Source of the DNA: a virus
Virus record (IMG/VR): IMGVR_UViG_3300036823_000117
Coordinates: 32,001 to 96,000 of that record
Direction: 5' to 3' (one strand)
Length of the DNA: 64,000 bases
Both the position numbers and the translations under genes were made by a program. Below, piece by piece: positions 1 through 61,319 of this stretch (positions are counted from its first letter, which is position 1; each line of letters opens with the position of its first letter). The notes beneath the pieces are model-generated. The model did no database searches. It was not told where the DNA came from and worked only from the letters and a program-made list of their open reading frames with translations.

Positions 1-292
1 CGTAGTTGATCGCCTGGGCGAGAACTTCCGCGGTCGGGGTGCGCGCCCACCCGCTGACCCGGTTGCCGTGCCCGTCCGACACCGGGCCGCCCACCCGGGC
101 AAACTCCGGATCGACAGCTATGACTGCCTGCCAGAGCGTCAGCCCGAAACCGACGTCGGGATTCAAGACGATGGAATGCGCGTCGTCCCACGTCGCCTCG
201 CCCGGCTGCTCCACGGCCGCCATCAGCCGGGCCCGCACGTCCTCGCCCAGTGCCCCGAACATGTTGCTCGCGGCGTTCAGGTCAATCTGCAT
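1..292 (-). CDS. Hypothetical phage protein (runs off the window edge)
   Basis: ATG at 292, open to the edge (MQIDLNAASNMFG...TWDDAHSIVLN); last gene visible in the leftward operon. Confidence 0.6.
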   Translation of the reverse strand, partial: MQIDLNAASNMFGALGEDVRARLMAAVEQPGEATWDDAHSIVLNPDVGFGLTLWQAVIAVDPEFARVGGPVSDGHGNRVSGWARTPTAEVLAQAINY

Positions 293-2268: not shown

Positions 2269-2496
2269 CTACCAATACGGATTCGTCCAGGGCCGCGCCT
2301 TGACAACGGTCCGCGCCGCGGGCAGGTCGCTGGCCGTAGTGCCCGCCTCCGCTTCGAAGGCACCCGGATACTCAGGGTCGTCGTACACCTCGAATCCGGC
2401 CGCCTCCAGTGCGCGCCGGAGCGCTGCGGTTGCGTCGTCGCCGCTGGCCGCTTCGATGTTGGCCACTACGGGCAACGATGTGTTGTAGATCGCCAT
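2269..2496 (-). CDS. Hypothetical protein
   Basis: MAIYNTSLPVV... after an RBS; operon context. Confidence 0.55.
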   Translation of the reverse strand: MAIYNTSLPVVANIEAASGDDATAALRRALEAAGFEVYDDPEYPGAFEAEAGTTASDLPAARTVVKARPWTNPYW

Positions 2497-2593
2497 TGCT
2501 TGCGCCCTTCCGTTTTCTGTGATGTGCTTCCGGCCCTGCTGGCCGGCCAGGGCAGCGAACGCGCGGCACGCGCCCGCCACCCTGGCCGGCCAC

Positions 2594-2962
2594 CTAGCCG
2601 AGGGGCCAGATAGCCTCGGCCGCCGCGGTCAGGTGACGCGCACCAACCGCCAGCCGCAAAGCGCCGGCCAGCTGCCGGCGCAACTCCGGCCGCAGCACGA
2701 TAACCAGCGTGACCAGCACAGCAAACGCCAGCTCATCCAACGGGCCCGGCACAGCTAGAAGCGCCGCAGGCAGCCACCTAAGCCACCGCGGGAGCAACGC
2801 CACACCGAACCCTGCCAGGACCGCGACCACCCGTAGCGGCGTACTCCGCGCCACGGTCCGCCGGCCAGCCAGGACCACCCGGGCGAGCAACCGCCGGCCG
2901 GCCAGGATGACCCCCAGGGCCCGCACGTCGGCCGCACGCGCGGCCACCATGATCACGCTCAT
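2594..2962 (-). CDS. Small membrane protein
   Basis: Hydrophobic segments around LLAVPGPLDELA; GGGG RBS. Confidence 0.55.
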   Translation of the reverse strand: MSVIMVAARAADVRALGVILAGRRLLARVVLAGRRTVARSTPLRVVAVLAGFGVALLPRWLRWLPAALLAVPGPLDELAFAVLVTLVIVLRPELRRQLAGALRLAVGARHLTAAAEAIWPLG

Positions 2963-49166: not shown

Positions 49167-50834
49167 TCAGCCCGTGGCGGGAAGATCCCAAGGCCAGGTG
49201 GCGTCGCGGCCGGCCTCTGTGACGGGGATGATCCGGAAGGCGGCATCGGTCAGGCCGCCCAGCGTGACCCGCGTCCCGGACCCTGACGGGGTAGCCCCGG
49301 CCGAGTAGCCGCCGAAGTTCCACATGTACAGCGGGACACTCGCCGGGACCAGGTCGTCGATCAGCGTTTCCTGCATGCCGCCGTTGCGCCACATGTTGGA
49401 CGGCAGGTAGCCGGCCCGGGTCTGCTCGTCGGTGACGATCACGACACGAGTGTGCTCGGGCCGCAGGTGCGTCTTGACCGCGAGCGGGATGTCTGTGCCG
49501 CCGGGCGCCGGCTGGTAGCTGAACCGCTCGACGATCTTCAGCACGGACTCCGCGGCCGTGAACTTCACCGGCCGGGATTTCCCCCAGAATTCCACCAGGT
49601 CGGAGTGCTCGGCCCGCCGCGCGATGGCCGCGCCGAAGATGGCCGCGCCGTCCGCCCAGGGCATGTCGGAATGCTCGGAGAACTTCTGATCCCACATCGA
49701 CGGCGACCGGTCCACCAGCACCAGGGTCCGGCCGCGGAGCGCGGGCACGTTGGCCAGGGACAGGTTCAGCGCCTTCTCCAGCGGATGCCCCCACCGCAGC
49801 GACGGCGCAGCGCGGTAAGCCGACAGGAACCGGAACGGGAACTGGCGTGACCGCGCGACGTGGTCCGGGTCCGCGAGCATGGCCGCGACCTGCTCGACCA
49901 CGTCATCGGGAACGCCGGCGTCGTCCAGGTTCCGCAGGTTGCGAAGGCGTGCCATGTAGCTCATCGATGGCAGGATCGCCGTCCACGCCGCCGCGTCCAT
50001 CGGCCCCTGCAGCCAGCCCGACATCGACTCCCATGTCATCCCGGCCTCGTGCAGCTGCTCGCTGGCGGCGGGCTCGCTGATCAAAATCCGCCGGGCGGCA
50101 ACAGGCAGCGCCATCAGCGCGGCCTGCCAGCGCAGCGTCTCCAGCACCTCCGGGATCTCGTTGTCCCGCCCGTGGCGCCGCTCGATCGCGTGCCGGTACA
50201 GGGCGTCTCGCCACGTCCCGTAGGCGTTGCCGTGGTACCGGGGCTGAACGAGCTCGATCACGTCACCGAACCGGACCGCCGCCTCGGCCGTGTCCCACTT
50301 CAGCAGGGCCCGCTCGTTGTACAGACGGTTCACCGCGTCAGCGACACCGCGCTTGAAGCCGATCGGCATCTTCCGGCCGTACCGCGCCAGCCAGTACGCG
50401 ATGATCTCGCCCGGCTCATCGGCGCGCTGCAGCACCGAGTCGACGACCTTGCGGACCGGCACGCCCGGGTTGCTGACCTCACGGCCCGTGCCAGCCTCAT
50501 CGCGACGCGCCCACGCGTACTCCGCCGCGGCCTCGACGGGCGCGAGCCTCAGGTTCCCCGGCCCCCGCATCCACGCCAGCAGGCCCGCGGTCCAGTCCGG
50601 GTGGACAGCTGACGCCTCGCGGACCAGGCCCCGGAACCGGCTCACCCGCGCGTCGGTGCCCTCGTGGAACGCCTTCTCGCCTGGCAGGTTGCACGCGGCC
50701 AGGAGAAACAGCTCCGACTGCAGGTCGCGGGTGTAACCCTGCGCGCCCAGCGCGGTCCGGGCTACGGGCGACGCCGTGCTGACCACGGGCGTGCGCGTCG
50801 GAGCCTTGACGGATCCCCGGTTGTTTCTGCTCAT
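49167..50834 (-). CDS. Ro60/TROVE-domain RNA-binding protein with vWA domain
   Basis: SELFLLA, LQRADEPGE, YMARLRNLRN, SRQFPFRFLSAY, TLVLVDRSPSM, VTDEQ. Confidence 0.93.
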   Translation of the reverse strand: MSRNNRGSVKAPTRTPVVSTASPVARTALGAQGYTRDLQSELFLLAACNLPGEKAFHEGTDARVSRFRGLVREASAVHPDWTAGLLAWMRGPGNLRLAPVEAAAEYAWARRDEAGTGREVSNPGVPVRKVVDSVLQRADEPGEIIAYWLARYGRKMPIGFKRGVADAVNRLYNERALLKWDTAEAAVRFGDVIELVQPRYHGNAYGTWRDALYRHAIERRHGRDNEIPEVLETLRWQAALMALPVAARRILISEPAASEQLHEAGMTWESMSGWLQGPMDAAAWTAILPSMSYMARLRNLRNLDDAGVPDDVVEQVAAMLADPDHVARSRQFPFRFLSAYRAAPSLRWGHPLEKALNLSLANVPALRGRTLVLVDRSPSMWDQKFSEHSDMPWADGAAIFGAAIARRAEHSDLVEFWGKSRPVKFTAAESVLKIVERFSYQPAPGGTDIPLAVKTHLRPEHTRVVIVTDEQTRAGYLPSNMWRNGGMQETLIDDLVPASVPLYMWNFGGYSAGATPSGSGTRVTLGGLTDAAFRIIPVTEAGRDATWPWDLPATG

Positions 50835-50880: not shown

Positions 50881-50960
50881 CCCGACAACGAGTCGGACTA
50901 GGCGACATGCGCCTTAAGCGCACCTATAGCCAAGGAAGTAGCCCAATCCTGCACTTCGGG
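50881..50960 (-). ncRNA. Y RNA-like element 2 (Ro-binding-type stem)
   Basis: CCCGAAGTGCAGGATTGGGCTACTTC...GCCTAGTCCGA...TCGGG; GTCCGA motif; directly upstream of Ro. Confidence 0.7.
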
Positions 50961-50987
50961 CCCGACCATGCATGAAGTTTGATCCCC

Positions 50988-51053
50988 CCCGATAACGGAA
51001 TGGCGGCGGCGAATTTCTTCTTGACAGGAAGTAGCCGTCACCTGCACTTCGGG
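50988..51053 (-). ncRNA. Y RNA-like element 1 (Ro-binding-type stem)
   Basis: CCCGAAGTGCAGGTGACGGCTACTTC...GCCGCCGCC...TCGGG; stem covaries with element 2. Confidence 0.65.
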
Positions 51054-51113
51054 AGAGGTGCTGACCGGAACGCTACACGACGTGACGGGACCGGTCCACT
51101 GCATTACCGCCTG

Positions 51114-51621: not shown

Positions 51622-53100
51622 ATGGCCGACCAGCAACTCGACGCCGTCGACTACAGCCGCGTCAGTGACGACAGCAAGCGCCGCGACGCCCGTTCGGTCA
51701 CCGAGCAGGCCAAGGACAACCTCGCCGACATCCGCAGGAATGGCTGGCGGCACGCCGACTCCTACTCCGACAACGACGTCTCCGCCTCGAGGTTCGGCAC
51801 GCAGGAGCGGCCCGACTGGAACCGCCTGCGCGCCGACCTCGACAACGACTCCAAGGTGTTCGATGTAATCGTCCTCTGGGAAACCAGCCGCGGTGACCGC
51901 ACCGCCGACACATGGCTCCAGTTCCTGTCGGCCTGCCGCAAGCGCGGCACCCTGATCCACGTCACGAGCCACAGCACCACCTACGACGTCCGCAAGCCCC
52001 GCCAGTGGAAGATCCTCGCCACCGACGGCATCGACAACGCCTACGCCAGCGAAGAGACATCCCTCCGCGTCAAGCGCGACATGAAGGCCTCCGCCGAGGC
52101 CGGCCGCCCTCACGGCTCGGCACCCTACGGCTACCGCCGCGTCTACGATGCCGAGACCGGCGTCATGGAAACCCAGGTCCCCGAGGAGCCAGCCGCCGGG
52201 ATCGTCCGGGAGATCATCAGCCGCGTCGCCGAAGGCGAAGCGGTTTCCGCGATCACCAAGAGCCTCAACCGTCGCGGCATCCCGTCCCCCCGCGGAAAGC
52301 AGTGGGCCTGCTACCCGGTCCGGCGCATAGCCACCAACCGCGCGTACATCGCCCAGCGGATCTGGCCGGGCGAGAGAGCACCCCTTCCCGGGATCTGGGA
52401 ACCCATCATCGACCCGCCGGACGTCTTCTGGGACGCGCAGGCCGTCCTCGAAGCCCGCCACAACCCGGCCACCCGCAGCGGCCGCGCCAGCCACCTCCTG
52501 TCCTGGCTCGCCATCTGCGGCAAATGCGGCCAGCGTCTCGTTTACAAGGGCAACGCCCGCGGGCCGGCTTCCCGCGGCACCGCAGTCCGGCCCGTCTACT
52601 CCTGCCCGGCCGGCTGCGCAGCGATGATCGCCGAATGGCTCGACACCTACGTCACCACGCGCATCATCACCCGCCTCTCCCATCCCGACCTGTTCGGCCA
52701 GCTCACAGCCGGCGGCAACGACGAAGCCGCCCATGCCCGCGCCACTGCAGCCGAGCTCCGGAGCCGCCACGCCGAAGCTGCCCAGTCGGCCGCCAGGGGA
52801 ACGCTGTCTATCACCGCCCTTGAAGCCATCGAGAACGTGCTGCTCCCCGATATCGAAGCCGCCGACCGGAAGGTCGCTGCGCTGACCGTTCCCCCGCTCA
52901 TCCGGGGCATCGTCGGCCATCCCCGCGACCAGGTCGCCGAAGAGTGGGCCGGGATGCCCATAGCGGCACAGCGCGACATCAGCCGCGTCCTCCTCGAGCA
53001 CATCAAGCTCATGCCTGCCGTCGGCGCCGCCCGCAGCGGCCACGCATTCGACCCCGACCGGATCCAGATGCGGTGGACAGGCGACGATGAAGACTCCTGA
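51622..53100 (+). CDS. Large serine recombinase (integrase)
   Basis: YSRVS catalytic motif, SAS..RP, SRGDR, PYGY, Zn ribbon CGKCG..YSCP. Confidence 0.93.
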   Translation: MADQQLDAVDYSRVSDDSKRRDARSVTEQAKDNLADIRRNGWRHADSYSDNDVSASRFGTQERPDWNRLRADLDNDSKVFDVIVLWETSRGDRTADTWLQFLSACRKRGTLIHVTSHSTTYDVRKPRQWKILATDGIDNAYASEETSLRVKRDMKASAEAGRPHGSAPYGYRRVYDAETGVMETQVPEEPAAGIVREIISRVAEGEAVSAITKSLNRRGIPSPRGKQWACYPVRRIATNRAYIAQRIWPGERAPLPGIWEPIIDPPDVFWDAQAVLEARHNPATRSGRASHLLSWLAICGKCGQRLVYKGNARGPASRGTAVRPVYSCPAGCAAMIAEWLDTYVTTRIITRLSHPDLFGQLTAGGNDEAAHARATAAELRSRHAEAAQSAARGTLSITALEAIENVLLPDIEAADRKVAALTVPPLIRGIVGHPRDQVAEEWAGMPIAAQRDISRVLLEHIKLMPAVGAARSGHAFDPDRIQMRWTGDDEDS

Positions 53101-54702: not shown

Positions 54703-55097
54703 CCGACCAGCGGTGGTGGATCTGCGACCTGGCTGACGAGACGTCACCCGGCGGCCACCTGTACGAAGCGCCGAACGCCAGGAGTGCCCTGGCCAAGTTC
54801 CGCGCGGACATGGTCGAGCATTACCTGGCCGCCGCTACGTCCCGGACGCACGCCAGGGACATCGTGCGGGCGAACCGGCCGAGGGTCTACGGCGGTCCGC
54901 TCACTGCCGCCGAGGCTTTCGAGCACGAGTTGGGGTGGGCGTGGGCATGGGAGATGTGCAGCCCGAAGTACCGCAGCGACGTCTACTGCAGCCCGGATGG
55001 CCGGGCCACCCGCGATGAGGCCGTGATGATCCTCGGCGAGAGGATCACGGCGCTGATGGAGCGTCAGGCCGGCGACGTCTACGGACTCTCGGCATGA
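54699..55097 (+). CDS. Hypothetical protein
   Basis: ATGA overlaps on both sides. Confidence 0.55.
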   Translation: MTDQRWWICDLADETSPGGHLYEAPNARSALAKFRADMVEHYLAAATSRTHARDIVRANRPRVYGGPLTAAEAFEHELGWAWAWEMCSPKYRSDVYCSPDGRATRDEAVMILGERITALMERQAGDVYGLSA

Positions 55098-56074
55098 CGG
55101 CGCTCGAGCCGGTCCTCGCGGGCACTATCGTCGCGCGGCCGCCAACTCTCTCGGTCCGCGATGTCGACGCATCCCGGTGGGGCGAGCCCGAGATGCTTCA
55201 CCACGCCGTCGACATCTGGCTCGACGCGCAGCTGTCGGTCCACACCAAGGCCGCCTACTGCCGCGAGTTCGGCTACTGGATCGAATGGTGCACCGAGAAC
55301 GGGGTCCCGGCCGCTGACCCACGTGGTCCCGACGTCGATGCCTGGCGCAAGACCTTCACCGGCCTGTCCCCCGCGACCGTCAACCGGCGGCTCAGCACCG
55401 TGTCCAGCTTCTACACCTACTGGACTGAGGAAGACGTCCTGACCCGCAACCCGGTCGCCCATGTCAAGCGACCCAAGGTGTCCGCCAAGCCCGTCAGCAT
55501 CTACCTCAGCAAGCCCCAGGCCACCCAACTCGTCGCCTACACCGACAGCCTCGACGACCCGCGGCCGGGCGTGATCTGCCGGCTCCTCGCACAGACCGGT
55601 ATGCGCGTCGGCGAGCTCACCGCCGCCACCGTCCCCGACCTGGCCATGTCCGGCGGCCACCACATCATTGAGATCACCCGCAAGGGCGGCAACCGCCAGC
55701 AGCTCGTCATCGTCCCCGGCACCTACCAGCGGACCGTCGACTACCTCGACGGCCGTACCTCGGGATACATCCTGGCCGTCGCGCGCACCGAACGGCGGGC
55801 CGCCGACGGCCAGATGGACCGCTCGTACGTCCGGCAGCTGCTGCGCCGCATCGCCCGCGAAGCCGGACTACCGGAAGCCGTCTGGCAGCGGATGCACCCG
55901 CACGTCCTGCGCCACTCAGTCGCCACGCTCCTCGCCGCCGACAAGGTCCCCGTCCACGAGATCCAGGAGTTCCTCGGCCACGCGTCCCTGCAGACCACAC
56001 AGCGGTACATCCACCACGCCCAGGAACTCGACGACAGCCCCGCCTACCGCATGCAGAAGATCCTCGCCGGCTAG
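55094..56074 (+). CDS. XerC/D-like tyrosine recombinase
   Basis: TGMRVGE, KGG, HPHVLRHS, LGHASLQTTQRY. Confidence 0.92.
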   Translation: MTALEPVLAGTIVARPPTLSVRDVDASRWGEPEMLHHAVDIWLDAQLSVHTKAAYCREFGYWIEWCTENGVPAADPRGPDVDAWRKTFTGLSPATVNRRLSTVSSFYTYWTEEDVLTRNPVAHVKRPKVSAKPVSIYLSKPQATQLVAYTDSLDDPRPGVICRLLAQTGMRVGELTAATVPDLAMSGGHHIIEITRKGGNRQQLVIVPGTYQRTVDYLDGRTSGYILAVARTERRAADGQMDRSYVRQLLRRIAREAGLPEAVWQRMHPHVLRHSVATLLAADKVPVHEIQEFLGHASLQTTQRYIHHAQELDDSPAYRMQKILAG

Positions 56075-56289: not shown

Positions 56290-56499
56290 GGCCCCAGCGA
56301 ATCACACGGCGGGTTCTACCGCTCTACCCGGTCCTTGTGAAGTCGGGTAGAAACCAGTGAACCCCCCGGTTGGCCTTGTGAGCCCGAAGCTCTTGGCCTA
56401 ACCGGGAGGTCCGATCACCGTGCTGGCGGTCAAGCCGGCCGGTGAAGTGGAACAGCCCTGGCCGGCTTGGGTCTCGTCCTCGGCCGGCTAGGGCCATCG

Positions 56500-56574
<75 letters not shown>

Positions 56575-56624
56575 ATCAGAAGACTACCGCACGTGACTGT
56601 CAGCCGGCTAGCTTCCTGGCCGGC

Positions 56625-57077
56625 TCAGCGTCCGTCACGGCGGGTGTACGTGATGTAGGCGTGAATGGTGCCGTTGCCCTCGAAGCTCACCGGGGAGATC
56701 TCCGCTGACGGCCAGCAGTTGCCCGCCCGCGACCATGCTTGCGGGATGAGCCGGGTGTAGGCCGGCCACGCTTTGAACTTGCCGCTCTCATCCGACGAGT
56801 TGCTGCCGTTGTTGCACAGGTCGTCCCAGTCGGCTTCGATGCGGCCGCGGCCTTCCCCAGGGATCGTGATCGTCCCCCAGGCGTGGACGCGGATGCTGGC
56901 CGGGTCGCCGATCAGCTGGCCGCCGATGTTGCAGATCGGGTAGCCGCCTGTGGCGTGGCAGGCCCCGAGGTAGTGAACCTTCGCGGCCGCGGGAGTTGCG
57001 GCGTGCGCCGGGAAGGCGGCCACGGCAGCAAGGCCGAGGCCGCTTACTGCGGCTGCGGCCAGCCGGGTAAGGAACAT
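56625..57077 (-). CDS. Secreted Cys-containing protein
   Basis: Signal peptide MFLTRLAAAAV...PAHA. Confidence 0.65.
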   Translation of the reverse strand: MFLTRLAAAAVSGLGLAAVAAFPAHAATPAAAKVHYLGACHATGGYPICNIGGQLIGDPASIRVHAWGTITIPGEGRGRIEADWDDLCNNGSNSSDESGKFKAWPAYTRLIPQAWSRAGNCWPSAEISPVSFEGNGTIHAYITYTRRDGR

Positions 57078-57126
57078 GCTGGCCACGGTATCGGCCACAA
57101 CGGTTACTCCGCAGCGGGAAACGCAC

Positions 57127-57202
57127 TGGCTGCCCAGCCCGGACTCGAACCGGGGCACGCCCCTTAGGAGGAGGCAGCTCTATCCACCTGAGCTACAGGG
57201 CA
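57127..57202 (-). tRNA. tRNA-Arg(CCT)
   Basis: Loop CT CCT AA; encoded CCA. Confidence 0.85.
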
Positions 57203-57203
57203 T

Positions 57204-57277
57204 TGGAGGCCGCGGCGGGAATCGGACCCGCGTGAGACGCTTTGCAGGCGCCCACCTAGCCGCTCGGTCACGCGACC
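57204..57277 (-). tRNA. tRNA-Cys(GCA)
   Basis: Loop CT GCA AA; T-loop GTCCGA. Confidence 0.85.
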
Positions 57278-57281
57278 CGGG

Positions 57282-57353
57282 TGCTCCCAACAGGAATCGA
57301 ACCTGTGTTGCCAGCTTCGGAGGCTGGTGTCCTATCCCCTAGACGACAGGAGC
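57282..57353 (-). tRNA. tRNA-Arg(CCG)
   Basis: Loop CT CCG AA. Confidence 0.85.
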
Positions 57354-57419
57354 ATGATCATGGACAGGGACCTGGGCCCCGGCCCGGGTGTGTGTGCCCG
57401 GCTTACGCCCTGTCCTCCG

Positions 57420-57501
57420 TGCGCCGTGATGGATTCGAACCACCGTGTCCGTAGATCGCGGTTTACAGCCGCGCGCATTCGCCCACTCTGCCAACGACGC
57501 C
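57420..57501 (-). tRNA. tRNA-Tyr(GTA)
   Basis: Loop CT GTA AA; long variable arm. Confidence 0.85.
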
Positions 57502-57589
57502 TAGCCCGGAGTCTTTGAGTCCCGCCTGCTCGCGAACAGGCTCTCCGGATCACCCGTGCATGCTCGGGTGCTGGCCATGCCAGGGAACA

Positions 57590-57664
57590 TGGGGAGGACA
57601 GCGGGAATCCAACCCGCGTGACCGGGTTCACAACCCGGCGCTCTAGCACTGAGCTATATCCTCA
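57590..57664 (-). tRNA. tRNA-His(GTG)
   Basis: Loop TT GTG AA; T-loop GTTGGA. Confidence 0.8.
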
Positions 57665-57665
57665 G

Positions 57666-57737
57666 TAGCCGCTGGAGGTACCGATCCTCCGGCCCCCGAT
57701 GTGTGAGATCGGTGCTCCGCCATTGAGCTAAGCGGCC
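57666..57737 (-). tRNA. tRNA-Val(CAC)
   Basis: Loop CT CAC AC; atypical T-loop. Confidence 0.8.
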
Positions 57738-57738
57738 G

Positions 57739-57810
57739 TGCGCCCAGGAGGACTCGAACCTCCATTGCCGACTTCGTAGGCCGGCGTCCTATCCGTTGAA
57801 CGATAGGCGC
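57739..57810 (-). tRNA. tRNA-Arg(ACG)
   Basis: Loop CT ACG AA. Confidence 0.9.
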
Positions 57811-57811
57811 T

Positions 57812-57886
57812 TGGTAGTCGCTCGAGGTGCTGACCCTCGGACCTTCCGCTAGTCGGGCGGATGCTCTGCCGCTGAGCTAAGCGACC
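57812..57886 (-). tRNA. tRNA-Val(GAC)
   Basis: Loop CC GAC TA; atypical T-loop. Confidence 0.75.
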
Positions 57887-57963
57887 AGGTGGGCTGCCCC
57901 GGCAACTCGGACCGCACGTCTGCGTGTCCTGCTACCGAGGGCAGCCCTTTTCTTAGAGTTGAG

Positions 57964-58036
57964 CGAGACCGACGAGATTTGAACTCGCGCTGTCACCTTG
58001 ACAGGGTGATGTGCTAACCGCTGACACTACGGCCCC
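57964..58036 (-). tRNA. tRNA-Asp(GTC)
   Basis: Loop CT GTC AA. Confidence 0.9.
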
Positions 58037-58098
58037 ATTCCACCGGACTTGACGTTGCCCTGACCACCGTCAGGGTCGAGGCGCCGGCGTTGCCTTCG

Positions 58099-58169
58099 CT
58101 CCCCCACCTGGACTCGAACCAAGATCCACCGGTTAACGGCCGGCCGCTCTGCCCTTAAGCTATGAGGGA
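58099..58169 (-). tRNA. tRNA-Asn(GTT)
   Basis: Loop CC GTT AA. Confidence 0.85.
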
Positions 58170-58324
58170 TTGGACCTGCGAAAATGTCAGACCGCATCCA
58201 TATACTTAGCGGATGCAAGTCACCGAACTAGAATGCGGGCATTGCCAGAATCTCGTGGCGCTGGACAAGCGGTGCCATTGGGAGTTCGACCACGGCTACC
58301 TGCTCCTGGTCGATGGGCGCTTCG

Positions 58325-58397
58325 TCGCGGGGAAGGGACTCGAACCCTCGACCTGCGGGTTATGAGCCCGCCGCGCTACCAACTGCGCCACCCCGCA
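58325..58397 (-). tRNA. tRNA-Met(CAT), initiator-like
   Basis: GGG CT CAT AA CCC. Confidence 0.9.
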
Positions 58398-58398
58398 G

Positions 58399-58469
58399 TA
58401 GCCCCACAGGGACTCGAACCCTGTCTCGCGGGTCGAAGGTCCGCGGTCCTACCCATAGACGATGGGGCC
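58399..58469 (-). tRNA. tRNA-Glu(TTC)
   Basis: Glu-type D arm; loop CC TTC GA. Confidence 0.7.
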
Positions 58470-58482
58470 TTGCTGTCCTGCG

Positions 58483-58553
58483 TACCCAGTAGGGGTGTCG
58501 AACCCCTGCTGCCGGGCTGAGAACCCGGCGGTCTGCCGTTAACCTAACTGGGC
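58483..58553 (-). tRNA. tRNA-Glu(CTC)
   Basis: Loop TT CTC AG. Confidence 0.85.
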
Positions 58554-58558
58554 TAGAG

Positions 58559-58631
58559 CGCGTCGACCAGGAATCGAACCCAGATCCACCGCTTAGAAGG
58601 CGGCCGTGCTTGTCCGTTGCACCACCGACGC
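58559..58631 (-). tRNA. tRNA-Arg(TCT)
   Basis: Loop CT TCT AA. Confidence 0.85.
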
Positions 58632-58632
58632 G

Positions 58633-58703
58633 TGCCTCGCCAAGGTACCGACCCCTGTTCCATCGGGTAAAAGCCGATTGCATCACCTTAATGCTTGCGA
58701 GGC
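58633..58703 (-). tRNA. tRNA-Lys(TTT)
   Basis: Loop CT TTT AC; atypical T-loop. Confidence 0.75.
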
Positions 58704-58704
58704 G

Positions 58705-58778
58705 TAGCCCACCAGGGGATTGAACCCTGCATCTCCTGCTTATAAGGCAGGCTCCGTCAACCAGGCGGATCGTGGGCG
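58705..58778 (-). tRNA. tRNA-Ile(TAT)
   Basis: CCTGC CT TAT AA GCAGG; atypical D arm. Confidence 0.75.
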
Positions 58779-58779
58779 T

Positions 58780-58856
58780 TGGTAGGTCACCAGAGAATCG
58801 GACTCTGCATCACCGCGTTATCAGCGCGGCCTCTCCAACCAGGCGAGACGTGACCA
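58780..58856 (-). tRNA. tRNA-Ile(GAT)
   Basis: Loop CT GAT AA; atypical D arm; encoded CCA. Confidence 0.8.
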
Positions 58857-58857
58857 G

Positions 58858-58950
58858 CGGAAGTGGTGAGGGTCGAACTCACAAGGCGACTCGCGCCGCT
58901 CGGCTGTTTTCGGGACAGCTGCCGTCAGCCTCTCATCGGCTTGCACTTCC
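58858..58950 (-). tRNA. tRNA-Ser(CGA)
   Basis: Loop CC CGA AA; long variable arm. Confidence 0.85.
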
Positions 58951-58954
58951 ATCG

Positions 58955-59039
58955 CGGAGGACGGACTATTCGAAAGCCACGTCTTGCGACGCGCATCCGC
59001 TAGCAACGGAGCCCGGCTCGCCTGTCCGGTTCATCCTCC
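58955..59039 (-). tRNA. tRNA-Ser(GCT)
   Basis: Loop TT GCT AG; long variable arm. Confidence 0.8.
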
Positions 59040-59040
59040 A

Positions 59041-59123
59041 TGGTGCGCTCGGAGGGATTCGAACCCTCATGCCCGTAGGCTCCGGGTCTGAGCCGGATGC
59101 GTCAGCCGTTGCGCCACGAGCGC
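59041..59123 (-). tRNA. tRNA-Leu(CAG)
   Basis: Loop CT CAG AC; encoded CCA. Confidence 0.9.
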
Positions 59124-59342
59124 GTGACGGGGAGTCCCTGGAGCGCAAGTACCGAGCCGTGCGGTGCCAGCCGACGGCATTTCATCGCTCTCCCTGACTG
59201 CGCCGGCCGCTGCACTGGCACTATCTCGCGGCCGTACGATCCGGGACTTGATCCCCGGGGCGCGTGCACGCGCCCGCTTGTCGCCGCACGTATTAGTTCC
59301 GGGGATTCCCTTCCGGTGACCCGGTACCGTGCGGCAGTAAAA

Positions 59343-59419
59343 CGGGGAGTGCTCTGCCTGGCTGAGCTACACCGGGCCTTGGCCCGGCGACCGGATTTGA
59401 ACCGGCGACCTCTCCCCCG
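59343..59419 (-). ncRNA. Circularly permuted tRNA-like RNA A (YrlA-type module)
   Basis: Order: T arm, loop-closed acceptor stem, D arm; ends pair GGGGAG/CTCCCC. Confidence 0.8.
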
Positions 59420-59491
59420 AGCGGAAGACGGGATTCGAACCCGCGACCCTTACCTTGGCAAGGTAATGCTCTACCGCTGAGCCACCTCCGC
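59420..59491 (-). tRNA. tRNA-Gly(GCC)
   Basis: Loop TT GCC AA. Confidence 0.9.
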
Positions 59492-59572
59492 ATGAGCCGG
59501 GTTCCAATCTGATGCCTAGGGTTTCCCCAGTGGTATAGCGGCTACAGTCACCCGACAAACCTCTACCGTACG

Positions 59573-59645
59573 AGCCACCGTTCGGTTTCGAACCGAACAC
59601 CTTCTGCCTACCATGCAGACGCTCTGCCAACTGAGCTACGGCGGC
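59573..59645 (-). tRNA. tRNA-Thr(GGT)
   Basis: Loop AT GGT AG. Confidence 0.85.
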
Positions 59646-59655
59646 GTGATTATCG

Positions 59656-59728
59656 CTGGCGGCCCAGGATTCGGACCTGGACTGGCGGGGCCAAAACCCG
59701 CAGGGCTGCCTGGTTACCCCAGCCGCCA
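59656..59728 (-). tRNA. tRNA-Gln(TTG)
   Basis: Loop TT TTG GC; T-loop GTCCGA. Confidence 0.85.
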
Positions 59729-59733
59729 TCGTG

Positions 59734-59806
59734 AGCCCGCTAGAGGTCTCGAACCCCTCGCCTGCCCTTTACAGGAGGGCCGCTCTACCAGCTGAGCTAA
59801 GCGGGC
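59734..59806 (-). tRNA. tRNA-Thr(TGT)
   Basis: Loop CC TGT AA. Confidence 0.85.
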
Positions 59807-59885
59807 AAGTCTCCCACCGGCCGCAGGACTCGAACCCTGCGTGTCTGCCGACGACGCCGGCCGTCGCTGCGTTACCGGTGGTTCG

Positions 59886-59959
59886 TGTCCACGGTGGGAT
59901 TCGAACCCACACTGTCCAGCCCCTCATGCTGGCGCCTCCTGCCGTTGGGCTACGTAGAC
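59886..59959 (-). tRNA. tRNA-Leu(GAG), short variable arm
   Basis: Loop AT GAG GG. Confidence 0.8.
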
Positions 59960-60068
59960 ATGGCGCGCGAGACAGGGCATGGACCCGTCAGCACGATAAT
60001 GGCGCTTGCGCCTCCCCCATGCCGTCATGGGCGCTACGCCGCTGAGCCGCGAGTATCCCCGCAGCCAG

Positions 60069-60141
60069 AGCCTCCGACTGGCCTCGAACCAGTTGCCTTC
60101 CGCTTACGGGGCGGACGCTCTGCCAGGTGAGCTACAGAGGC
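60069..60141 (-). tRNA. tRNA-Thr(CGT)
   Basis: Loop CC CGT AA. Confidence 0.85.
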
Positions 60142-60284
60142 ATGGGAAGTTCTGGCCAGCCAAGGTCAACCCATCCGTCCCAGCCGGTCACGCCTGACAG
60201 CGTTGCCCCGGCCCAGACGTCGTACCACTCGGCATCCAGATCATCCATGACAGGGCCAGACGTCGCACCGCCTGGTCTTGTCCG

Positions 60285-60355
60285 CTGGGAACCCTGGATT
60301 CGAACCAGAACCGACGGAGCCAGAGTCCGCCGTGCTGCCGTTACACCAGCTCCCA
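60285..60355 (-). tRNA. tRNA-Gln(CTG)
   Basis: Loop CT CTG GC. Confidence 0.9.
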
Positions 60356-60360
60356 TTGAG

Positions 60361-60435
60361 TACGGGCGGGGAGAGTCGAACTCCCAAGCAACCCGTTTTG
60401 AGCGGGCCAGGTCTGCCAGTTCCCGTCACGCCCGC
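60361..60435 (-). tRNA. tRNA-Leu(CAA), short variable arm
   Basis: Loop CT CAA AA. Confidence 0.85.
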
Positions 60436-60440
60436 TCGAG

Positions 60441-60513
60441 TGCGTCGCCTCGGCCTCGAACCGAGAGCCCGCGGAGTAAGAGTCCGCTGCACGTCCACTT
60501 GTGCTTGCGACGC
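60441..60513 (-). tRNA. tRNA-Lys(CTT)
   Basis: Loop CT CTT AC. Confidence 0.85.
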
Positions 60514-60517
60514 ATAG

Positions 60518-60588
60518 AGCTCCACCGGGGAATCGAACCCCGCTCGTCAGCTTGGAAGGCTGACACATCACCACAATGCTTGTGGAGC
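60518..60588 (-). tRNA. tRNA-Gly(TCC)
   Basis: Loop CT TCC AA. Confidence 0.85.
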
Positions 60589-60589
60589 G

Positions 60590-60664
60590 TGGCGATGGAC
60601 ATCGGACTCGAACCGAGACTGCCCCACTTATGGAGGGGCGTGCTGCCAGTTACACTATCCATCT
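60590..60664 (-). tRNA. Atypical tRNA, probably Met(CAT); anticodon register ambiguous
   Basis: D and T arms and CCA present; loop TCCATAAGT between CCCC/GGGG. Confidence 0.55.
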
Positions 60665-60716
60665 GACGCCGGGAGCGACCCGCCGTCCAGGAGCTGGCTG
60701 ATCAGGCCGTGCTCCG

Positions 60717-60789
60717 TGCCTGCCGCTGGAATCGAACCAGCCACCCCCGCCTTTTCAGAGCGGTGCTCTACCGGATGAGCTAGACAGAC
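60717..60789 (-). tRNA. tRNA-Phe(GAA)
   Basis: Loop CT GAA AA. Confidence 0.9.
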
Positions 60790-60874
60790 TTATGCAGGGG
60801 TTCTCCGGCTTGCGCCTGCCCAGGAGGACCGCGGCCCGAAGTCCGCGCGCCCTACCCTGCTCCTGGTCTCCGAG

Positions 60875-60946
60875 TCGGGATACAAGGACTCGGACCTTGT
60901 CTGCCTGGTCCCAAACCAGGCGCGCTGACCCTTACGCGATATCCCG
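60875..60946 (-). tRNA. tRNA-Pro(TGG)
   Basis: Loop TT TGG GA; T-loop GTCCGA. Confidence 0.85.
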
Positions 60947-60950
60947 TTCA

Positions 60951-61031
60951 CGGGGAGTGCTCTACCAGCTGAGCTACCGGACGCCCCTTGGGGCGCCCAG
61001 GCCGGACTTGAACCGGCGACCTCTCCCCTCG
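60951..61031 (-). ncRNA. Circularly permuted tRNA-like RNA B (YrlA-type module)
   Basis: GGGGAG AGGTC GCCGG TTCAAGT CCGGC, closed stem, TA GCTC AGCTGGTA GAGC A CTCCCC. Confidence 0.8.
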
Positions 61032-61104
61032 TGGAGCACCGGGGACTCGAACCCCGCACATCCTGCTTGCAAAACAGGTGCTCTACCTGATGAGCTAGCG
61101 CCCC
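61032..61104 (-). tRNA. tRNA-Ala(TGC)
   Basis: Loop TT TGC AA; G3-U70 pair. Confidence 0.9.
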
Positions 61105-61248
61105 ATTGCCCGGTCCCGGCCAGCCCGCGGCGTACCGCGAGCCGGCCAGGACCGGAGTCTTACTGCGCGGCCCTGGCTCGGCCGCGCTGCGTTTCCCGCT
61201 GTGGATTTGTCAATGCACAGACCCATTGCCCCGGAGGGTCGGGTACCG

Positions 61249-61319
61249 CTGGGCCAGAGGGATTCGGACCCCCATCGCCGGTTTTGGAGACCGGAGCTCT
61301 GCCGTTGAGCTATGTCCCA
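61249..61319 (-). tRNA. tRNA-Trp(CCA)
   Basis: Loop CT CCA AA; T-loop GTCCGA. Confidence 0.85.

Follow-up and report, generated by a model that had tools for sequence, protein, structure and literature searches.

The window analysed here is a stretch of 64,000 nucleotides, bases 32001-96000 of the 118.6-kb soil virus record IMGVR_UViG_3300036823_000117, whose completeness is judged to be 97%. It includes an array of 34 tRNA genes (56499-61319), every one on the minus strand, predicted with ARAGORN for the window; 27 of these reach the gathering score of the Rfam tRNA model. Two anticodon-less, circularly permuted tRNA-like elements, el1 and el2, are confirmed within this array, on the strand of the tRNA genes (Table 1). 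Their fold is the one that the tRNA-like module has in YrlA, a Y RNA in which the module is combined with a long end-paired stem carrying the binding site for the protein Ro (Ro60/Rsr). Copies that stand alone will be called free modules.

In both elements the 3' half of a tRNA precedes the 5' half, as the original prediction, made from the sequence alone, had described. The order is GGGGAG, AGGTC (the variable region), T arm (a 5-bp stem with the 7-nt loop TTCAAAT or TTCAAGT), a capped acceptor-like stem, TA, D arm (a GCTC/GAGC stem with a loop containing GG), A and CTCCCC. The closing stem is identical in the two elements and the T and D arms are nearly so. The capped stems, both with the loop CAAG, differ at most positions with all pairs kept (23 of 23 pairs in each copy). 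That these stems differ and yet both pair had been predicted correctly; the lengths given for them (9 and 11 bp) had not, since the extra C-G pair would leave a loop of 2 nt, and we count 8 and 10 bp. All tRNA core nucleotides that were checked can be read in the sequence (U8, A14, G15:C48, G18, G19, A21, C13-G22-G46, U54-A58 and C56), by the usual tRNA position numbering and contacts.

Neither element has the cloverleaf order, the 7-nt anticodon loop or the free acceptor ends of a canonical tRNA. Neither is called by ARAGORN, and the only match to the Rfam tRNA model is over half of el2, at 10.6 bits. The mRNA-like segment with a tag peptide that characterises a permuted transfer-messenger RNA (tmRNA) is absent from both, and neither ARAGORN nor Rfam detects a tmRNA in the window. 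Outside the called tRNAs, the only T-arm hairpins in the array are those of el1, el2 and a third at 58866-58882. A model search of the whole phage genome revealed no third module.

Each element starts directly after a normal tRNA gene, tRNA-Gly or tRNA-Ala, as had been noticed: the closing stems begin at 59417 and 61028, 2-3 nt past the tRNA. Because complete tRNAs stand 2-5 nt from the elements, no Ro-binding stem is possible. The flanks do not, therefore, fold into an ordinary YrlA, the outcome named beforehand as fatal to the prediction, and the long end-paired stem with a Ro site and GNCGAA/CGAA motif is missing. The spacers are regular. In six copies (el1, el2 and those at the viral loci L071, L073, L153 and L124 described below) CG, CGA or CAA follows the tRNA discriminator and GT lies directly 3' of the closing stem, a regularity consistent with release of the modules by tRNA processing. 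With only 2 nt between them, 3' maturation of tRNA-Gly would set the 5' end of el1 and, with tRNA-Pro beginning so close to el2, the RNase P cut at this tRNA would set the 3' end of el2.

Table 1 Features of the window, in window coordinates
Feature	Position	Strand	Details
el1, free tRNA-like module	59344..59417	-	6-bp closing stem GGGGAG/CTCCCC, 8-bp capped acceptor-like stem
el2, second free module	60952..61028	-	closing stem, T arm and D arm as in el1; 10-bp capped acceptor-like stem
tRNA-Gly(gcc)	59420..59491	-	discriminator 59420; 3' end 2 nt ahead of el1
tRNA-Ala(tgc), G3:T70 pair	61032..61104	-	discriminator 61032; 3 nt (CGA) ahead of el2
tRNA-Pro(tgg)	60875..60946	-	begins 5 nt (GTGAA) past el2
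Ro60/Rsr ortholog, 555 aa, TROVE domain	49167..50834	-	8.5 kb from el1, 10.1 kb from el2
Y-A, module-less Y RNA upstream of Ro	50975..51063	-	CCCGAAG in 5' strand of 9-bp terminal stem
Y-B, homolog of the YrlA of L002/L014	50868..50970	-	hairpin of about 29 nt replaces their tRNA-like module

Model scores, covariation and free modules in other phages

Both elements fold better than their shuffled versions (z -3.9 for el1 and -4.2 for el2; none of 200 shuffles equals either). The minimum-energy fold of el1 is the four-way junction; a caveat is that that of el2 is an alternative extended fold. Alignment with the Rfam YrlA model (RF02553), a check suggested with the original prediction, gave the local match anticipated, to the tRNA-like core only (model positions 23-85; el1 30.9 bits, el2 35.8 bits), and an Rfam scan of el2 returned no convincing family besides YrlA. 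The gathering score of 69 bits is not reached (el1 and el2 lie at 30.9-37.7 bits). This is weak evidence, because classical Ro-adjacent copies in Xanthomonas phage Bolivar also fail (39.6-50 bits). Nor does the score by itself prove anything: an ordinary tRNA-tRNA junction (57149-57254) obtains 31.5 bits with the same model, about equal to el1. For this reason the argument for the modules rests on their flanks and on our own module model, R1. This was built from the two window copies (el1 scores 97.7 bits as a training copy). With it, full-length relatives are detected in further viral contigs with scores of 50-71 bits, and the tRNA junctions that were checked score at most 39.5 bits.

Covariation was assessed in 18 array-type or stand-alone copies from 14 sources, in an alignment fitted to the model and with three acceptor pairs fixed by the census pattern (see below). 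In this set 95.3% of cells are paired, compared with 38-48% in slid controls, and 18 of 23 pairs have changed on both sides, including all 6 of the closing stem (none of 500 shuffles is as high). An independent MAFFT set of 6 copies gives 98.5% paired cells and 10 pairs changed on both sides. The G(-1):C73 pair is present in 6 of 7 distinct copies of the unbiased sets. This pair and C1:G72, the top pairs, are not general in Ro-adjacent modules and, in the census, are imposed by the pattern. Pairwise module identities do not decide between a YrlA and a tRNA origin of the free copies.

Free copies are conserved in other phages, partly at syntenic positions, as expected if the prediction was sound. 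In L071 and L073 the tRNA genes of the array follow one another as they do in the window; the module of L073 occupies the position of el1 (Gly(gcc) to Leu(cag)) and that of L071 the position of el2. Sequences that differ little from el1 and el2 occur in contigs of two further soil studies (many further 'joints' in soil contigs are cross-matches between tRNAs). A census of viral contigs, with a pattern that excluded most tRNA junctions, returned 70 stretches. In these R1 gives 71 matches in 60 of 66 new loci: according to an automatic script, 26 lie within 3 kb upstream of a Ro-like open reading frame (ORF), 9 just downstream of one, and 3 overlap a tRNA call. The remaining matches have no Ro in the locus, and 15 matches of at least 44 bits occur in 12 tRNA-rich loci without a Ro ORF. 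The modules of L153 and L124 are separated by 2 nt from the preceding tRNA and by 7 nt from the following one; L132 and L143 carry two tandem modules each, and the L068-type copies are 120-138 nt from the closest tRNA. In L068 itself, a Ro-less jumbo-phage contig, tRNA-Gln and tRNA-Trp are separated by a single 330-nt gap (2310-2643, plus strand), in which two more units containing a T arm flank the module. L139 (7630-8059, minus strand) and L174 (5229-5304, plus strand) combine Ro, a module just downstream of it and an array of 20 tRNAs; these layouts may be intermediates between Ro-linked and array-borne modules.

Among cultured phages, megablast gave no match and a more distant blastn search gave 98 records. 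The Vibrio matches are tRNA-Met|Arg junctions and the listed annotated Synechococcus matches are tRNA-Thr|Ala junctions. The one Xanthomonas/Xylella record inspected, Bolivar, contains classical Ro-adjacent YrlA. Here (L083, MW822535, 990-2959) four tandem YrlA-like RNAs precede a coding sequence whose annotation reads hypothetical protein; its product is a Ro60 ortholog with TROVE and Ro60 vWA domains. ARAGORN miscalls part of one of these RNAs as tRNA-Asn. Caulobacter phage Karma (NC_019410, L082) carries a copy of 54.7 bits between two tRNA-Met genes, which 13 phiCbK-type records share with at least 99% identity. In the Karma locus the 5' end of GOLLD RNA is also matched in part (70-131, minus strand; 44 bits against a gathering score of 150). 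When bacterial genomes were scanned with a pattern for the 5' part, 23 stretches were obtained, of which L107 alone scores as a module, with no hint as to the host; a pattern for the 3' half returned only L071 and two ordinary tRNA-Asn genes. A second match in genome G028 is a tRNA-Arg|Arg junction. No flanking proteins common to the window and other carriers were found.

The Ro locus and carriers without Ro

The window encodes Ro, with two Y RNAs upstream of it. In 23 of 27 viral loci with related Ro genes, R1 finds a module, often two, just upstream of Ro, which is the classical YrlA layout. It finds none upstream of Ro in the window. The Ro-upstream regions of L002 and L014 (Ro 73% identical) are homologous to that of the window. 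Y-A lacks a module in all three, while Y-B contains one in L002 and L014 and the short hairpin in the window. A model of these Ro-adjacent Y RNAs, R2, matches exactly Y-A and Y-B in the window (Y-B, which is outside the training set, with 42.3 bits). It gives no match at el1, el2 or 57887-57962, and detects no Y-type RNA in the array loci of L071, L073, L068 and L082. With their tRNA flanks, el1 and el2 thus stand alone, as claimed for them. The original prediction also listed three solitary Ro-type stems: those at 50881 and 50988 are parts of Y-B and Y-A, and the third, at 57891, belongs to an unrelated hairpin. This long hairpin (57887-57962, minus strand), between tRNA-Asp and tRNA-Val(gac), folds with -47.2 kcal/mol (z -8.3) and is not followed by a T run on its own strand. 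A serine recombinase (51622-53097) and a tyrosine integrase (55094-56071), both on the plus strand, separate the Ro locus from the tRNA array.

G001, the genome from which L002 comes, is the closest complete relative. It carries an intact YrlA and lacks tRNA genes, and for this reason we assign the free modules to the tRNA array and not to a rearranged Ro locus; most likely, they came in with the array. In whole-record searches of 26 relatives no match beyond the known Ro-flanking ones exceeds 25.6 bits, and the two such matches lie at tRNA genes.

Co-occurrence with TROVE, proposed as a check of the original prediction, was not observed for most carriers of free modules. TROVE is absent from all five of the first carriers and from 15 of 16 further carriers; the module of the sole positive, G047, is probably close to Ro, to judge by analogy with L155. 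Five carriers either reach 90% completeness by CheckV or were deposited as complete genomes. Four of them, G028 (317 kb), G032, G045 and Karma, have no Ro, and the window genome has one. TROVE was found neither in Karma nor in the Caulobacter vibrioides control genome.

Interpretation

The reading towards which we lean, with modest confidence, is that el1 and el2 are free YrlA-type effector modules, released by tRNA processing, that act as Ro-independent, non-decoding tRNA mimics. Each element would encode a free RNA of about 75-85 nt, comprising the effector-binding domain of YrlA without the Ro-binding stem. It would be transcribed inside the polycistronic tRNA array and freed by the enzymes that mature the neighbouring tRNAs, the 5' end arising from 3'-end processing of the upstream tRNA and, for el2, the 3' end from RNase P acting at the next one. 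The predicted fold is the L-shape of a tRNA with a capped acceptor end. An open-ended helix would stand where the anticodon arm should be, so that the module could not decode. In trans, its tRNA shape would make it the ligand of a protein able to recognise the elbow of tRNAs, with no requirement for Ro.

We propose a Ro-free ligand of this kind because the literature regards the module as the part of YrlA that binds an effector and because phage Y RNAs can bind an effector alone in gel shifts. The Wang 2018 preprint describes the module as the effector-binding domain, with a partner that is not known and is thought to bind the elbow. Gel shifts (PMC12135203) showed phage Y RNAs binding host PNPase without Ro. 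PNPase (the only documented Y-RNA effector) or another exoribonuclease is a possible, if unlikely, partner, and a tRNA-targeting defence protein is a candidate to which we give rather little weight.

Mycobacterium smegmatis YrlA, with a 7-bp acceptor stem, is cleaved by RNase P and receives a CCA tail in vivo (Chen 2014). Since RNase P cuts this actinobacterial stem, the 8- and 10-bp caps may be opened too, and the term 'unchargeable' used in the original prediction is an assumption. The modules may, as was suggested there as an alternative, be decoys that absorb tRNA-targeting toxins; our observations speak neither for nor against this. A cap cut followed by CCA addition would turn each module into a tRNA in two pieces that lacks an anticodon but has a real acceptor end, like a tRNA from which a defence nuclease has excised the anticodon loop. 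This could serve as a bait or signal for host sensors of tRNA damage or for repair enzymes, or as a chargeable non-decoding tRNA; we consider such a fate decidedly improbable. Neither RtcB nor a CCA-adding enzyme was found encoded in the phage genome.

Several known RNAs come close to the elements. YrlA shares with them the order T arm, capped acceptor-like stem and D arm and the same tRNA core nucleotides, that is, its permuted tRNA-like domain, which the Wang 2018 preprint already describes as a tRNA that is circularly permuted and has its acceptor stem closed. In contrast to YrlA, el1 and el2 have no Ro-binding stem or CGAA-type motif, are flanked by tRNAs, lie 8.5-10 kb from the Ro gene instead of adjoining it, and have counterparts in Ro-less genomes. 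The module-less, YrlB-like Y RNAs (Y-A and Y-B) occur in the same genome and their biology is in principle related, but they have a putative Ro-binding stem, no tRNA-like fold and a match to R2. Two-piece tmRNA (RF04321), which is encoded about 540 nt from the Karma module, is permuted in a similar way, with T arm and 3' acceptor strand before the 5' acceptor strand; the modules differ in having a full D arm and neither an mRNA-like part nor a tag reading frame. A 2026 preprint reports bacterial tRNA mimics that stand alone (skipping-rope, DUF2693-FD and salivarius-1). These are, like the modules, autonomous, with acceptor/T-arm and elbow kept and the anticodon loop absent, but their connectivity and sequence are different. 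We found no published description of a free module, although the supplements of Chen 2014 and of a 2020 Annual Review article may list copies.

A number of observations weigh against the proposed Ro-independent role. The Ro tally draws on few genomes, the majority of Ro-less carriers being fragments of 7-76% completeness, and the Ro status of the host is established for Caulobacter only. The window genome itself holds a Ro system with module-less Y RNAs as well as free modules. The census pattern demanded the T-loop, the D-arm and three acceptor pairs, and conservation there is partly by construction. The Karma copy is invariant in its 13 records, has a perfect closing stem of just 4 bp and is followed by a 3' flank that resembles a leftover anticodon loop; it might, for these reasons, be a relic.

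The original prediction favoured a single Y RNA split into cooperating parts, in which the free modules would supply in trans, together with Ro, Y-A and Y-B, the effector domain lost by Y-B. The joint presence in one genome of Ro, a pair of free modules and a pair of Y RNAs without a module, and the position of Y-B as homolog of a module-bearing YrlA, invite this explanation. So does a 9-nt perfect complement between the 5' part of the module and the 5' strand of Y-A, which only 24-28 of 1000 shuffles reach. However, the complementary segment of Y-A is conserved in relatives without free modules, its pairing would break the terminal stem of Y-A, and the overall module/Y-RNA duplex energy is at chance level (of 300 shuffles, 182-297 equal or surpass it). 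Moreover, L003 and L023 likewise have a Y-B without a module and carry 0 and 1 tRNA genes, and their whole records give no module match, in a search that also missed some weaker Ro-adjacent copies. Added to the many Ro-less carriers and to the array loci without Y-type RNAs, this makes us think a split system improbable. The tight and regular spacing in six copies would also suit an element acting in cis on the tRNA precursor, a tRNA-shaped spacer with no role once released. Such a spacer would help the adjacent tRNAs to mature, either by recruiting or placing RNase P or RNase Z or by holding off exonucleases. We regard this as quite unlikely: the neighbouring tRNAs carry their own processing signals, most tRNA pairs of these phage arrays abut without a module, the L068-type copies are remote from any tRNA, and the same fold is a trans-acting domain in YrlA.

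Two further explanations start from tRNA genes. A tandem duplicate of one tRNA yields exactly the observed order, so that the elements could be non-functional relics, the middle of such a duplicate (3' half and 5' half) whose outer halves were deleted. The scores of up to 39.5 bits obtained by tRNA-tRNA junctions with the module model and the 3' flank of the Karma copy agree with this origin. In the window copies, however, all pairs are intact despite divergent acceptor-like stems, all four helices covary across lineages, the position is conserved in syntenic arrays, and near-unchanged copies exist in two other soil studies; a relic is therefore very improbable. A fragment of a phage attachment site was also considered and set aside, since it would hold the 3' part of a tRNA only, without covariation. 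Circularly permuted tRNA genes of red algae, in which the 3' half is likewise encoded before the 5' half, mature to decoding tRNAs via a circular intermediate. RNase Z and RNase P products have 5'-phosphate and 3'-OH ends that a ligase can join, and the ends of the modules could in principle be closed to a circle and the acceptor loop opened to give a decoding tRNA. Unlike those of the algal genes, the flanks of el1 and el2 cannot form a 7-nt anticodon loop: joined, they would leave 8 nt on a 6-bp stem (el2, L071) or 12 nt (L073). All six close copies have G as the first unpaired base on the 3' side, where a tRNA has T33, and the phage genome has no detectable RtcB (other RNA ligase families were not searched). 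We find a true permuted tRNA gene scarcely credible.

If the proposed reading is true, and the module is a free RNA also where phage and host are both without Ro, as in phiCbK-type phages and Caulobacter, then the domain has an activity of its own. Since these phages and their host are both cultured, this activity could be found by ordinary genetics and pull-downs. Phage tRNA arrays would then include non-decoding members that tRNA finders miss, which bears on the current view of these arrays as codon supplements or counter-defence.

Other features of the tRNA array

The third T-arm hairpin of the array (58866-58882) is a good one and lies in a 184-nt gap without a tRNA call (58857-59040, minus strand). 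Because L071 and L073 have tRNA-Ser genes at the matching position, the gap may hold a missed or degenerate tRNA-Ser. After el1 there is a 220-nt non-tRNA spacer (59124-59343, minus strand), where L073 has 9 nt. It gives no match to Rfam or to our own models, and one soil contig skips the segment 59127-59282. The 603-aa protein encoded upstream of the array is a generic metallophosphoesterase. According to ARAGORN, the gene at 60590-60663 (minus strand) is a tRNA-Tyr with the anticodon ATA; it scores 26.6 bits with the Rfam tRNA model, for which the gathering score is 29.

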